Shown here: positions 10,632-45,981 of the stretch, one piece after another | Layout: each line of letters begins with the position of its first letter | Numbering within the stretch: the stretch's first letter is position 1 | NCBI GenBank assembly: GCA_021817565.1 | Contig: JAKAUP010000007.1 | Coordinates: forward strand, 152,497-216,496 | Source: Candidatus Micrarchaeota archaeon | Lineage (GTDB): Archaea; Micrarchaeota; Micrarchaeia; Micrarchaeales; Micrarchaeaceae | Direction: 5' to 3' | DNA length: 64,000 bases | The notes under the pieces: generated by a model | Seen by the model: the letters and a program-made list of their open reading frames with translations, nothing else | Database searches by the model: none | What the model was told of the DNA's origin: nothing | Made by a program: the position numbers and the translations under genes

Positions 10632-11090
10632 ATGCGAGCGCAATCCGCAATGGAATACCTCACAACGTACGGCTGGGCAATACTCATAATAGGCATTGTG
10701 CTCGGAGTATTGTACGCTTCGGGATTCTTTTCCCCAAACGTGACGCCAGAGTGCGTATTTCCCAATTTCTCATGCCTGAGCTACAGCCTATCCGGCTCAG
10801 GATCGATATCGATAAACATAGCACCCAACAACATTGAATATCCGATAAACATAACTGCGGTCGCGTGCAATACGGGAGGAAACCCCACAAACCTAACGAA
10901 AATAAACCCGGAAGTAACGCTCGAGCCGCAACAAAACTTTTCCACAACCGTCGACTGCTACGACAACGGCACCATATTTTCAGGTACAACCGGCAGCGTC
11001 TATGAAGGTTACTTTATAGTAAAGTATATAAGCACCCAAAACGGATTCCCATATACAGAACTCGGGAAGGTAGTTGCCAAGGTGGGATGA
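10632..11090 (+). CDS. Class III signal peptide (type IV pilin-like) protein
   Basis: From the internal ATG: MRA|QSAMEYLTTYGWAILIIGIVLGVL matches the archaeal QxSxEYLxxxG class III signal peptide motif followed by a hydrophobic helix. The C-terminal domain is paralogous to 12017-12481. Confidence 0.75.
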   Translation: MRAQSAMEYLTTYGWAILIIGIVLGVLYASGFFSPNVTPECVFPNFSCLSYSLSGSGSISINIAPNNIEYPINITAVACNTGGNPTNLTKINPEVTLEPQQNFSTTVDCYDNGTIFSGTTGSVYEGYFIVKYISTQNGFPYTELGKVVAKVG

Positions 11091-12016: not shown

Positions 12017-12481
12017 ATGGTTTGCATGAAACTCCAATCCGCAATGGAATACCTCACAACGTACGGTTGGGCGATCTTAATCCTTGCAATAGTTGCGCTC
12101 GTAATAGTGAGTAGCGGCCTTCTCACGCAAAGGCCCACAGACATATGCTCATTCGAATATAACCTCACATGTAGCTCTTATTACATAAACTCTAACGGGA
12201 TTCTGAACATCACGATAGCTCAGAAGACCGGATACAACATAACCGCTACTTACATAGGCTGCGATTCAAACGTGTCCTCCTCTCCAATACTCCTCCCCAT
12301 ATCAGACAATGTTCCGAACGGGGGCAGCTTCAGTTCTACGGTGCAGTGTTATTATGGCGGTAAATACTTCAATAGCAGCATCAGCGGCACATATCAGGGC
12401 TATGTGGTATTGGAATATACAAGCGAGCTAAGCGGCTACCAACACACAAACGTAGGGCGCATAGTATATAACATAGGGTAA
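12017..12481 (+). CDS. Class III signal peptide (type IV pilin-like) protein, paralogue of 10632-11090
   Basis: MVCMKL|QSAMEYLTTYGWAILILAIVALV. The C-terminus ...CYYGGKYFNSSISGTYQGYVVLEYTSELSGYQHTNVGRIVYNIG parallels ...CYDNGTIFSGTTGSVYEGYFIVKYISTQNGFPYTELGKVVAKVG. The start may be the ATG at 12026. Confidence 0.75.
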   Translation: MVCMKLQSAMEYLTTYGWAILILAIVALVIVSSGLLTQRPTDICSFEYNLTCSSYYINSNGILNITIAQKTGYNITATYIGCDSNVSSSPILLPISDNVPNGGSFSSTVQCYYGGKYFNSSISGTYQGYVVLEYTSELSGYQHTNVGRIVYNIG

Positions 12482-42644: not shown

Positions 42645-44594
42645 GTGGAATTGGATCAGGTAAACAGCATAGAGAATGCAAAACTTAGCCGCTCCCACTT
42701 GCGCATAATGCTCATATCAGGGATGAGCTTCTTCACTGACGCATATGACCTATTTGTAATAGGTATAGTGCTCATAATGATAAAGGGGATATTCAGTCTC
42801 ACTCCTTTTCAGATAGGCTTGCTTGCAAGCTCCGCGCTCTTCGGCGCGGCAGTAGGTCCGCTCATATTCGGGTACGTCGGAGACAAAATAGGCAGGAAGC
42901 ATACATACTGGATCACTATCCTAATACTCATCATAGGAGCGATAGGCTCTGCATTCTCATACGGTTTCATAACCCTGTTCATATGGAGGTTCATCCTTGG
43001 AGTTGGTATAGGGGGCGACTATCCGCTCAGCGCAACAATAGTCGCGGAATACGCAAACAAGAACGACAGGGGAAAGCTGATATCATCCACATTCGCGATG
43101 CAGGGCTTCGGGATAGTCTCTGGCGCAATACTGGCAATCCTTCTCCTCTCGATAAACGTGAATGTAGGGATAGCATGGAGAATACTTCTGGGGTTCGGGG
43201 CAGTACCTACCCTATTCATACTTTATGCAAGAGCCAGGTTGCATGAGACACCATGGTACAGCGATTACAAAAAGAAGGCAAGTTCGTCTCATCACAAGGC
43301 GCCCGATTACACAATAGGTATCAGGGAGCTCATCTCCAACAACTGGAAGTACATAATCGGAACTTCTGTTGCATGGTTCCTGCTTGATATCTCATACTAC
43401 GGCACATCCATATTTACCCCATACCTTACCACGCTATTTGGTTTCAAGGGGATCTTTGGCCCGACATTGGCATCTGCAGCCATACTCGTAGTGGCGGCAG
43501 TTCCTGGATACTGGGTTGCAGTCGCACTTATAGACAAGGAGGGGAGGAAGCTGATGCAATCAATAGGATTCCTGGCGATGGGCATACTCTTCGGCATATT
43601 GGCAATATCCGGCCAATACCTGCTCAGCATCCTACCGCTAGCGTTCTTCTCGCTCTACGCACTTACGTTCTTCTTCTCAAACTATGGGCCAAACACAACA
43701 ACATACGTATATCCAGTGGAATTATACCCCACGCAGTATAGAGCTAGGGGGCACGGGATAGCAGCCACATCCGGAAAGATAGGAGCAGCAATATCCACCC
43801 TCCTATTTCCGATAGTGATACTCGAATACGGGAAGTTTGCGCTGATGGGGGCGTTAGGCGTTGTCGCAATAATAGGGTTTGTTGTAACAGTATTCCTTCT
43901 CCCGGAAACAAAGAGGCGCTCCCTTACGGAGACCTCTGGAGAGCGTGAGATAATGCTCATAACTGACAGCCTGGGATCAGAGTTCTATGGGCTGGTGGAA
44001 AGGATAGATGAAGGGATAAAACTTGTGGACAAAAGGCTTTCACGGGAGACCGGAAACGAGGAGTTCTTCGAGAGCGTGAAGCTCAAAGAGCACGAGGCGG
44101 ATCAGATTGTCCATAAGATAATGGACTACATAGCCGACTATGGTGCTAACAGTATCTCATACACGGACGTATCGCATCTAGCAAAGAGGCTGGACGACAT
44201 CATGGACAGCCTCGAGGCAATAGCATCGAGATTCTCGTTGTACGATGTGGAGAAAGTGGAGAAGGAGATGGTTGAGGTGCAGAAGTGCACGCGGATGTGT
44301 TTCAATCAAGTAAGAGAGGGGATGTTCATACTCAATAAGGTAAGGAAACACGGAATGGGCGTGCAGGAATCGTTCAAAAAACACTCGATACTTGCGTCCG
44401 AGTATGAGAACGCGGCGGATGCGGTACTGCGTTCCTCCATAAAAAGGCTGATGCGCGGCAATAACATAAAGCACATAATCGCATACAAGGAGATATACGA
44501 GCACATGGAGGCGGTTAGCGACAGGTGCATAGATGTAATTGACATAATAAACGATATCATAATAAAGTATGTCTACTCATCAAAACGCAGCTGA
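42645..44594 (+). CDS. MFS transporter (phosphate:H+ symporter/PHS-like) fused to a C-terminal DUF47/PhoU-like domain
   Basis: The first ~430 aa form 12 TM helices with SFFTDAYDLFVIGIV and GDKIGRKHTY motifs, typical of Pho84/PHS-type MFS. The last ~210 aa (KLKEHEADQIVHKIMDYIA...HLAKRLDDIMDSLEAIASRFSLY...YKEIYEHMEAVSDRCIDVIDIINDIIIK) match the DUF47 (PhoU_div) pattern. The start is GTG, ~25 nt after ccataaatatata. Confidence 0.75.
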   Translation: MELDQVNSIENAKLSRSHLRIMLISGMSFFTDAYDLFVIGIVLIMIKGIFSLTPFQIGLLASSALFGAAVGPLIFGYVGDKIGRKHTYWITILILIIGAIGSAFSYGFITLFIWRFILGVGIGGDYPLSATIVAEYANKNDRGKLISSTFAMQGFGIVSGAILAILLLSINVNVGIAWRILLGFGAVPTLFILYARARLHETPWYSDYKKKASSSHHKAPDYTIGIRELISNNWKYIIGTSVAWFLLDISYYGTSIFTPYLTTLFGFKGIFGPTLASAAILVVAAVPGYWVAVALIDKEGRKLMQSIGFLAMGILFGILAISGQYLLSILPLAFFSLYALTFFFSNYGPNTTTYVYPVELYPTQYRARGHGIAATSGKIGAAISTLLFPIVILEYGKFALMGALGVVAIIGFVVTVFLLPETKRRSLTETSGEREIMLITDSLGSEFYGLVERIDEGIKLVDKRLSRETGNEEFFESVKLKEHEADQIVHKIMDYIADYGANSISYTDVSHLAKRLDDIMDSLEAIASRFSLYDVEKVEKEMVEVQKCTRMCFNQVREGMFILNKVRKHGMGVQESFKKHSILASEYENAADAVLRSSIKRLMRGNNIKHIIAYKEIYEHMEAVSDRCIDVIDIINDIIIKYVYSSKRS

Positions 44595-44625
44595 GGCTGC
44601 AAAAGCAAATGCAAACAGAAAGTAT
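44543..44625. repeat. Direct repeat copy 1 (83 bp), covering the last 52 nt of the MFS-DUF47 gene plus 31 nt downstream
   Basis: cataataaacgaTatcataataaagtatgtctactcatcaaaacgcagctgaggctgcaaaagcaaatgcaaacagaaagtat is identical to 45783-45865 except at one position (44555 T versus 45795 C). Confidence 0.9.
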
Positions 44626-44867
44626 CATAACGAACCACAAAAGTAATTATATCCGGAGACCTGCATTTATCCCGTGTTCCTTTGGGTTATCCTAGTCAAC
44701 AAGTTTCTTCAATATATCGGAATTTTCAGGTAAGTTCATTTCTGGTCGCAGAAATGGCGGAGCGAAAAGTTATGATACATAAAATCCAAAAGACATTAGT
44801 GGAGTTCTATAATACAAAACAATCAGAAGTAAAAAGCCGGAGTCTTTCGATGCAGTACTGCTTTCAA

Positions 44868-45071
44868 CTATCTCTTGCGCAATAAAGTGATTTCTTTAAT
44901 TTCTCCAGTCTTTACTGCACGAACAAATTTATTGAAATGTTCTATCGACATTTTTGCTACATTTCCAACTTCGTCTATTAGACTGACTGCATCGGCATGC
45001 TCGTCAAGCACAAACTTTGGAACCTCCATTCTACGTGGGTGTACCTTATACACTTTTCGTTTCATCACCAT
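44868..45071 (-). CDS. Small DUF397-like protein (tentative)
   Basis: ~67 aa. ...VSLIDEVGNVAKMSIEHFNKFVRAVKTGEI resembles the C-terminal half of DUF397 proteins (...W.AF...VK.GEFD). The call is supported mainly by its adjacency to a DUF6879-like gene, which is the usual actinobacterial pairing. Confidence 0.35.
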   Translation of the reverse strand: MVMKRKVYKVHPRRMEVPKFVLDEHADAVSLIDEVGNVAKMSIEHFNKFVRAVKTGEIKEITLLRKR

Positions 45072-45121
45072 CTCACCCAAAACTAATAATTAACCTAATA
45101 ATTTAATAATTTAGCTTTGTT

Positions 45122-45691
45122 TTATAGTCTATCTATTTTATGATTCTTCAAAAATTCATGCATAGGTATCCCCCGCTTTATTAAATCGGTTTTTAGATAT
45201 ATGTATTTAGAAAGACTAATCGGTTCTGTTATAGCGGTACCTTTATTTATGAAACGACCACGGGGATCATAGTTCATAGGTATAACTGCCTTGTTATCAA
45301 ACAACCAATAATCTTGGAATCTGGCAATAAGGTTTGCGACTTTATCTCTTTCGACAAATAAAAAACGTTGGCCATATTGCTCTGCTATAGAAGAGCCCAT
45401 CTCGATACCGAATTTTAAATAATCACTCATAGGCAAATCTAGTACTTGCAAGTCTATTATTCTCACACCAGCATACCTTTTCTTTTATTCCGGAAACCCA
45501 ATCTTTAAAGCCAGATACTTCAAACCCACTAACTGCTTCGCCATTTTTCCAACGTTCAAATAACTCTTTTTCGTCAATAACTTCATAATAATTTAACAAC
45601 TCTAACTTAAATATTTCAAATTCTGATTCTTTCCAATAGTATCAAAAGTCTTAATCTTAACCTTACTTTCATCACTGTTTGAAACTGTCAT
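45122..45691 (-). pseudogene. DUF6879-like gene disrupted by at least two frameshifts
   Basis: There are three consecutive minus-strand reading segments. The first is ATG 45691 MTVSNSDESKVKIKTFDTIGK.. (stop at 45604-45602). The second is ..YYWKESEFEIFKLELLNYYEVIDEKELFERWKNGEAVSGFEVSGFKDWVSGIKEK.. The third is the tracked 114-aa ORF (V)RIIDLQVLDLPMSDYLKF...FQDYWLFDNKAVIPMNYDPRGRF. Joined together they follow the DUF6879 layout as I remember it. The second shift falls in the A-rich run around 45478-45487. Confidence 0.45.
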
Positions 45692-45782
45692 TCGGTCGGA
45701 AGGGAGAACACAATAAGCAGCATGAAGGAAATGAGATACGCGGACGCGGGTCAGTGAAGGAGGGGCGCATAGGTACTATAGC

Positions 45783-45865
45783 CATAATAAACGACATCAT
45801 AATAAAGTATGTCTACTCATCAAAACGCAGCTGAGGCTGCAAAAGCAAATGCAAACAGAAAGTAT
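45783..45865. repeat. Direct repeat copy 2 (83 bp)
   Basis: 82/83 identical to 44543-44625. A degenerate continuation (acgaacca) is shared just beyond both copies. Confidence 0.9.
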
Positions 45866-45899
45866 TAAATTACGAACCAAGGATATTTACCTGCAAATT

Positions 45900-45972
45900 G
45901 CGATCGTAGTCTAGCCTGGTAGGACATCGCCTTGCCAAGGCGGTAACCCGGGTCCAAATCCCGGCGGTCGCA
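45900..45972 (+). tRNA. tRNA-Gly (GCC)
   Basis: Hand-folded: acceptor GCGATCG/CGGTCGC (one G-U pair), D arm GTCT-AGCCTGGTA-GGAC, anticodon arm TCGCC-TTGCCAA-GGCGG, 4-nt variable loop, T arm CCGGG-TCCAAAT-CCCGG, and discriminator A. The T loop has C where U55 is expected. Confidence 0.7.
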
Positions 45973-45981
45973 TCTCAAATA

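Follow-up and report, generated by a model that had tools for sequence, protein, structure and literature searches.

How did a short AT-rich tract come to lie between two nearly identical copies of one gene tail, just upstream of a tRNA-Gly gene, in a very small archaeal genome? The locus belongs to a tiny acid-mine archaeon of the Micrarchaeota (Candidatus Micrarchaeota archaeon, assembly GCA_021817565.1) and was studied within a 64,000-nucleotide (nt) stretch of contig JAKAUP010000007.1, which we call the window and whose numbering is used for coordinates unless another is named. Here the gene for a transporter runs into the first copy of a direct repeat, 1157 base pairs (bp) of inserted DNA follow, and a second, orphan copy of the gene tail stands between the insert and tRNA-Gly. 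We find that the locus is probably the scar of a Campbell-type single-crossover insertion, in which small mobile DNA entered at the junction of the transporter tail and the tRNA-Gly promoter. A preliminary description of the window, made from the sequence letters, had taken it for foreign DNA with decayed cargo, lying between duplicated copies of its target in the manner of attL/attR (left and right attachment sites), and that general picture is borne out by the results below.

The target gene (42645-44594, plus strand) encodes a 649-amino-acid (aa) transporter of the major facilitator superfamily (MFS) fused to a C-terminal PhoU_div (DUF47) domain (Pfam Sugar_tr 4e-46, MFS_1 1e-38, PhoU_div 2e-12), orthologues of which are ~66% identical in other Micrarchaeota. 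The cores of the two repeat copies, 44543-44625 and 45783-45865 (the attR-like orphan tail, plus strand), agree at 82 of 83 positions, just as first described. Their sole mismatch (T44555/C45795) falls on the third base of an Asp codon and is synonymous (GAT/GAC), and a perfect 70-nt block (44556-44625 in copy 1) extends to the right of it. Likeness continues beyond the core on both sides, so that the attL-like copy 1 can be drawn at 44524-44640 on the plus strand. To the left the alignment extends in register (44524-44625 against 45764-45865, 102 nt at 92%), with 12 matches in the 19 nt directly adjoining the core, and to the right a likeness of ~12-15 nt with a 2-nt indel persists as the motif ACGAACCA, which is marginal when taken alone (170/3000 shuffles). 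The repeat period, insert plus one core, is 1240 nt, and the core can form a hairpin of only 6 bp. This is the only long near-identical duplication of its kind within the window, and its position, 45 kb into the window, is well within the interior of a 271-kb contig and not at a contig end, where the preliminary description had named an assembly artefact as a danger. Two of its smaller statements needed correction. Copy 1 does supply the end of the transporter gene, as 16 sense codons and the stop rather than 17 codons and the stop, so that the open reading frame (ORF) is completed and the protein unchanged; and an intact tRNA-Gly(GCC) does follow (45899-45974, plus strand; ARAGORN, Rfam tRNA 60.6 bits), beginning 33 nt and not 34 nt past the end of copy 2.

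The flanks of the two copies were compared with related genomes to ask which of them are native. A conserved motif, ACAGAAAGTATTAAATTACGA, occupies 45855-45875 on the plus strand and straddles the right end of copy 2, and in two related genomes, G002 and G004, a motif of the form ACAGAAAGTATTAAA(T/A)TACG stands at an equal distance from tRNA-Gly. Both genomes have the motif though no transporter gene is present there. It is probably the B recognition element (BRE)/TATA promoter of tRNA-Gly. The right flank of copy 2 (TATTAAATTACGA) matches the sequence upstream of tRNA-Gly in G002 and G004, whereas the right flank of copy 1 does not; what follows copy 1 is TATCATAACGAACCA, in which the tRNA-Gly upstream motif is recognisable in diverged form. 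On the left the roles are reversed, as copy 1 is preceded by the continuous transporter ORF and copy 2 by a diverged, out-of-context likeness of it. This comparison shows that copy 1 is native on its left and copy 2 on its right, and that the two inner flanks arrived with the insert. Such a polarity is expected when the resident site and an incoming copy exchange by one crossover. Homology of the element's right arm to the tRNA-Gly leader of this genome (G000) or of G002, G004 or G005 was not significant beyond ~12-15 nt.

Among the relatives, the same-genus genome G005 has the transporter, a 165-nt spacer and tRNA-Gly, with neither duplication nor insert. In G002, G003 and G004 the upstream 404-aa gene directly adjoins tRNA-Gly and the transporter is absent between them, and in other Micrarchaeota genera the transporter is found elsewhere, followed by a small membrane-protein gene. 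This distribution points to the transporter as a lineage-specific arrival at, or loss from, the spot next to tRNA-Gly. The repeat reaches into the conserved tRNA-Gly upstream motif, and the duplicated target therefore appears to be the junction of gene tail and tRNA promoter rather than the 3' end of a gene alone, as had first been proposed. Since the duplicated tract would span both the gene tail and part of a tRNA promoter, the insertion had to preserve two functions. The tRNA-Gly gene itself differs among these genomes in its T loop, which reads TCCAAAT here and in G002 and G004, TCCGAAT in G003 and TTCAAAT in G005; the T-loop variant is thus a lineage trait and not insertion damage.

The manner in which the copies diverge is informative about their history. 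Only 1 of 83 core positions is mismatched, versus 7 of the 19 positions immediately to the left (Fisher p = 2e-5). Uniform decay after a duplication made on the spot would cause the copies to diverge evenly, and this does not fit the observed step. The step suggests instead that two already-differing homologous segments recombined in their most similar stretch, and hence that the incoming DNA had its own diverged copy of the junction, of roughly 120-175 nt. Such a copy would be visible in the 93 nt to the left of copy 2 (45690-45782, plus strand), a GC-rich arm (guanine plus cytosine fraction 0.53, similar to that of the host) that we regard as element-borne and that shows a weak gapped likeness to the transporter at 44472-44542; the score of this arm against the final ~75 nt of transporter coding sequence ahead of the core was equalled in 3/3000 shuffles and 2/2000 genomic controls. 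In the proposed sequence of events, the incoming DNA, which would have been circular, carried the tail of a gene module (a DUF6879 gene and a small partner gene) along with its own junction copy. A crossover within the 83-nt near-identical tract would then have left a hybrid copy on each side, the left one completing the transporter ORF unchanged and the right one retaining the native tRNA-Gly upstream motif, and the DUF6879 gene would later have decayed through two frameshifts. Set against the 66-77% identity found between congeners, the near-identical core suggests either that the event was recent or that repeated recombination has homogenised the core.

The insert (44626-45782), which occurs as a single copy in the genome, is foreign by composition. 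Its GC content of 0.345 over 44626-45689 compares with a genome mean of 0.450 and ranks within the lowest 2.4% of same-size genome windows, which confirms the AT-richness seen at first reading. Equally in agreement with that reading, it holds one small intact ORF, one multiply frameshifted gene and no integrase. The frameshifted gene is a pseudogene of the DUF6879 family (PF21806) on the minus strand at about 45122-45689, recognised by Pfam, frame translations and six-frame matches, with frameshifts near 45640 and near 45475. Its C-terminal 114-aa piece belongs to the family at 7.5e-15 and 55.2 bits (gathering cut-off 23.9), its N-terminal piece reaches 18.6 bits in another frame, and across two frames the pseudogene is 58% identical to an intact 197-aa protein of G003. 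The DUF6879 start lies only 75-93 nt from the repeat, and thus there is no room for a regulator gene. The intact ORF (44868-45080, minus strand) encodes 65-70 aa depending on the start and finds matches by tblastn in 6 relatives. It belongs to a rare family, for which a profile search returned 34 representatives among 1.84 billion proteins. The model of the small protein (predicted local distance difference test score, pLDDT, 82) has a predicted fold of four strands and one helix, for which no fold match was found in PDB, and the ORF has no match in Pfam, PADLOC or PHROG. An identity as DUF397 was considered for it and found no support, as 7 family members gave no DUF397 match even at E <= 10, the profile search recruited only the 34 representatives, which were not scanned against Pfam, and there was no fold match. 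A 67-aa ORF on the plus strand at 44682-44885 is without relatives and is probably not a gene. Neither replication-origin-like repeats in the insert nor RNA genes in the insert or in the relatives' islands were detected.

The cargo can be understood from related genomes, where it forms part of a three-gene module with the order of a ~350-aa double winged-helix regulator (Lrp/AsnC- and MarR-like), DUF6879 and the ~70-aa small protein. The small-protein homologue directly follows the DUF6879 gene in 6 related genomes, and the two-winged-helix protein of ~350 aa precedes the pair in 5 of these 6 (G003, G079, G093, G081 and G116), which represent several genera; in G115 the contig ends within the DUF6879 gene and the module is only partly seen. 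By this comparison, the insert consists of the last two genes of the module with the regulator missing, and hence is a truncated piece rather than the decayed whole element that the preliminary description had assumed. DUF6879 is present in 15/121 family genomes, and the module stands at differing loci, on an AT-rich patch in G003, G079, G081 and G093, with IS200 / IS110 transposase genes nearby in G079 and G116. To judge from this distribution, the three-gene module looks mobile and patchy. No convincing direct repeats were found around the intact triads in relatives, and no tRNA-fragment repeats beside the tRNA-adjacent DUF6879 genes of four relatives.

As to its function, the AlphaFold model of the intact G003 protein (L021:1462-2055; pLDDT 88) gave weak matches only, phospholipase D (PLD)-like or TrmB-C-domain-like (template modelling score, TM, 0.35-0.46). 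A D[YF]W[ML]FD motif is conserved across the family, but none of its His or Lys residues is invariant, as an HKD motif would require, and a literature search on DUF6879 found no paper. Our guess is that the cargo serves as an accessory or defence-type module linked to a regulator. At 20-30% identity, distant homologues of DUF6879 also occur in >80 IMG/VR viral contigs; in 9 of 10 such loci that were examined GC is high (0.66-0.71), a distance of 1.5-2.5 kb between gene and contig end is common, and in three loci a gene for an XRE-HTH/DUF5753 protein stands immediately downstream (Pfam).

Several observations weigh against a single-crossover insertion of mobile DNA. The insert ORFs contain no integrase, split integrase or transposase domain, the insert is without terminal inverted repeats, and the truncated module does not resemble a self-sufficient element. 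No tyrosine recombinase (PF00589, E <= 0.001) was detected in the whole host genome (775 kb in 8 contigs, rated 97% complete), a search that matched in 14/14 control genomes, and the genome appears, partly from its 8 contigs, to be metagenome-assembled. G005, the closest comparable genome, is only ~66% identical, and its empty site is thus a genus-level comparison. A 24-mer of the core and a 24-mer of the insert were unmatched in JGI metagenome contigs, the core 24-mer was unmatched in IMG/VR, and BLASTN of 44500-45900 against plasmid and phage collections gave no match; no copy of the core sequence turned up in the relatives, viral contigs and metagenome contigs searched. Of the empty site and intact element that the preliminary description had proposed to look for, these comparisons recovered genus-level relatives free of the duplication and neither a same-species empty site nor an intact element.

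What, then, could have carried out the recombination? PF00589 recombinases are present in 28/61 family genomes, many of them ~400 aa long, which indicates that integrase-bearing elements circulate in the lineage, while a universal recombinase of the XerA type seems to be missing from much of the family. One tentative candidate is an element-borne or trans-acting integrase that has since been lost, which would make the locus a remnant similar to cis-mobilizable elements (CIMEs). Homologous recombination by the host across the 83-nt homology is likewise possible, with some doubt; homology of 83 nt, including 70 nt of perfect identity, suffices for homologous recombination in archaea. The site-specific integrase invoked in the preliminary description is therefore one agent among others, given that no PF00589 protein is found genome-wide and that homologous recombination is an equal candidate. 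A split integrase of the Sulfolobus spindle-shaped virus (SSV) type was rejected, as the insert has only ~416 nt of non-coding DNA, not enough to hold a split int gene. We also rejected a transposon or insertion sequence (no transposase domain, no terminal inverted repeats, a duplication of 83 nt where a short one is expected) and an integron gene cassette. The latter would need an attC site, an imperfect inverted repeat some 50-150 nt long, and attI with IntI beside it; the repeat is instead a gene tail that can fold into a hairpin of only 6 bp, with no tyrosine recombinase at hand.

The same structure could also be explained by a unit that is still active, namely an integrase-less mini-cassette with the 1240-nt period that excises as a circle and re-enters across the duplicated tail. 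This reading overlaps with the insertion scar, from which it differs only in the unit being mobile today, and we consider it unlikely, though it rests on a specific lead. The 65-aa protein and the 114-aa DUF6879 piece (products of window 44868-45466) were found, both exact, on a single Logan contig of 1270 nt, a contig known to us by its length. Logan contigs derive from a de Bruijn graph with k=31, and 1270 equals the 1240-nt repeat period plus k-1. By simulating such a graph from this genome, we found that the unitig or contig holding the insert is 1230 nt long for the integrated form only, 1230 nt for integrated plus empty-site alleles, and 1270 nt for a closed 1240-nt cycle. Logan contigs with host genes of the window reach lengths of 9.3 kb, and the host can thus be reasonably covered there. 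A variant of the small protein (V15G) on a 978-nt contig from ENA, from a closely related strain, shows in addition that the cargo is not unique to one assembly. Against this, a length of 1270 nt also arises if one chromosomal junction link is missing from the graph, which we estimate at a few percent under plain integration because the host's Logan contigs extend to 9.3 kb, compared with 21 kb in an ideal graph. A circle accompanied by a well-covered chromosome sharing the 70-nt block would again be expected to yield 1230 nt, and the observed length would therefore reflect a run in which the unit closed on itself or was far better covered than the chromosomal junctions. The unit, moreover, lacks genes for replication or recombination, and the main gene that it does carry is broken. 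A generalisation that we hold to be equally doubtful is that Micrarchaeota may host integrase-less cassettes of ~1 kb that insert by duplicating a conserved gene's tail, here a protein-gene tail plus a tRNA promoter, and cycle between chromosome and circle through recombination across that tail alone; the 1240-nt unit would then be one such cassette captured in its circular state.

Two further explanations do without an incoming junction copy or without an insertion. Illegitimate recombination or repair insertion, or a tandem duplication followed by insertion, could have produced the locus on the spot; the lack of a recombinase and a cargo made up of a truncated fragment, not a complete element, are compatible with such a local origin. 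Sharp ends and uniform divergence would be predicted in that case, and instead we observed 1/83 versus 7/19 mismatches (p = 2e-5), the weak gapped likeness over ~75 nt on the left and the marginal 12-15 nt on the right, and 83 nt far exceeds any target duplication made by a transposase. We thus judge a local origin to be improbable. It is more improbable still, to the point of being nearly negligible, that the arrangement is an assembly artefact in which the assembler joined into the chromosome either a separate small molecule or a strain variant that has the 70-83-nt block in common with it. In its favor are the apparent metagenomic origin of the assembly, the identical k-mer graphs that the integrated form and an empty site plus circle would give for any k below 70, and the hint of a cycle in the 1270-nt Logan contig. 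The two copies are non-identical, though, and have diverged flanks, the site is far from either contig end, and the related ENA strain also has the insert gene; a 70-nt block is also shorter than an ordinary read, so that reads should span it. Taken together, insertion by a single crossover between the resident junction and a diverged incoming copy remains the probable explanation of the locus.

By itself such a scar is an ordinary genomic fossil, real, recent-looking and of a known kind. The locus nevertheless records the horizontal entry of genes into a DPANN genome of very small size (0.78 Mb), and it illustrates that an integration can preserve both the C-terminus of a protein and the adjacent tRNA promoter. 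The genome contains two att-bracketed islands and no detectable tyrosine recombinase. If the circular form were true, the gain and loss of small cassettes in recombinase-poor, reduced archaeal genomes would become directly testable.

The second of these islands, also integrase-less, lies outside the window at G000:C2:130002-134003. It starts with a tRNA-Ala(CGC) gene (G000:C2:130002-130073), the 3' 52-54 nt of which are repeated 3.9 kb downstream at 94% identity, and it contains a ribonucleotide-reductase C-terminal fragment together with CYTH, SnoaL and AAA_14/DUF4143 ATPase genes. By analogy, the tRNA-Ala island can be seen as a classical parallel to the scar at the transporter tail. Elsewhere in the window, a 41-nt direct repeat (10641-10681 and 12035-12075, 95% identical, spacing 1394 nt) codes for the same N-terminal peptide, about QSAMEYLTTYGWAI, in probably two adjacent paralogous genes, and it resembles a pilin-type signal sequence and not an att site.

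Among known systems, the integrated elements mapped in Thaumarchaeota offer a close comparison. As in those elements, direct repeats bracket AT-shifted foreign DNA, a replacement gene tail keeps the target ORF intact, and an uninterrupted site occurs in a related genome, here at the level of the genus (PMC6563490). The attachment site, which the preliminary description had called unusual, has counterparts there, with 14/68 mapped elements lying in 3'-distal regions of protein genes (PMC6563490). The Thaumarchaeota elements differ in being 2.6-98 kb long and integrase-encoding by definition, with att sites mostly <26 bp (PMC6563490), in contrast to the 1.16 kb, the absence of an integrase, the 83-nt core and the truncated cargo module of the present insert. 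Measured against what is generally expected of a site-specifically integrated element of the tyrosine-integrase type (pNOB8-like or SSV-like), the locus shows flanking repeats and a regenerated target (an 82/83 repeat, a completed ORF and a retained tRNA-Gly motif), and it shows no integrase inside the insert or split across its ends.

The lack of an integrase is a feature shared with CIMEs, att-flanked remnants such as decayed streptococcal integrative and conjugative or integrative and mobilizable elements (ICE/IME) that keep attL and attR (PMC5704250). Our locus agrees with the definition of a CIME in having att-like flanks without integration genes, and it resembles these remnants in its insert without a recombinase of its own and in its decayed look (PMC5704250). 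CIMEs, by comparison, occur in bacteria and owe their mobilisation to an ICE integrase of matching specificity, whether resident or newly arrived, and no such integrase is found in the present genome; a cognate integrase element with the same att site, acting in trans, was absent from our searches (no PF00589 in the genome, core unmatched elsewhere).

Two archaeal parallels come from tRNA genes and from the laboratory. Remnants of 'gene capture' at archaeal tRNA genes after SSV-type integration were reportedly described by She et al. in 2001, and the present locus is like them in being a duplicated-target scar with trapped foreign genes, and unlike them in that its target is the tail of a protein gene plus a tRNA upstream motif, with no split integrase halves. 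In the pop-in/pop-out (Campbell) integration of archaeal genetics, a circle enters the chromosome by one crossover and duplicates a short homology on either side of itself, and recombination between the repeats frees a circle. That is a laboratory procedure with engineered homology, whereas here natural DNA bearing its own diverged copy of the junction would have taken the part of the engineered construct.

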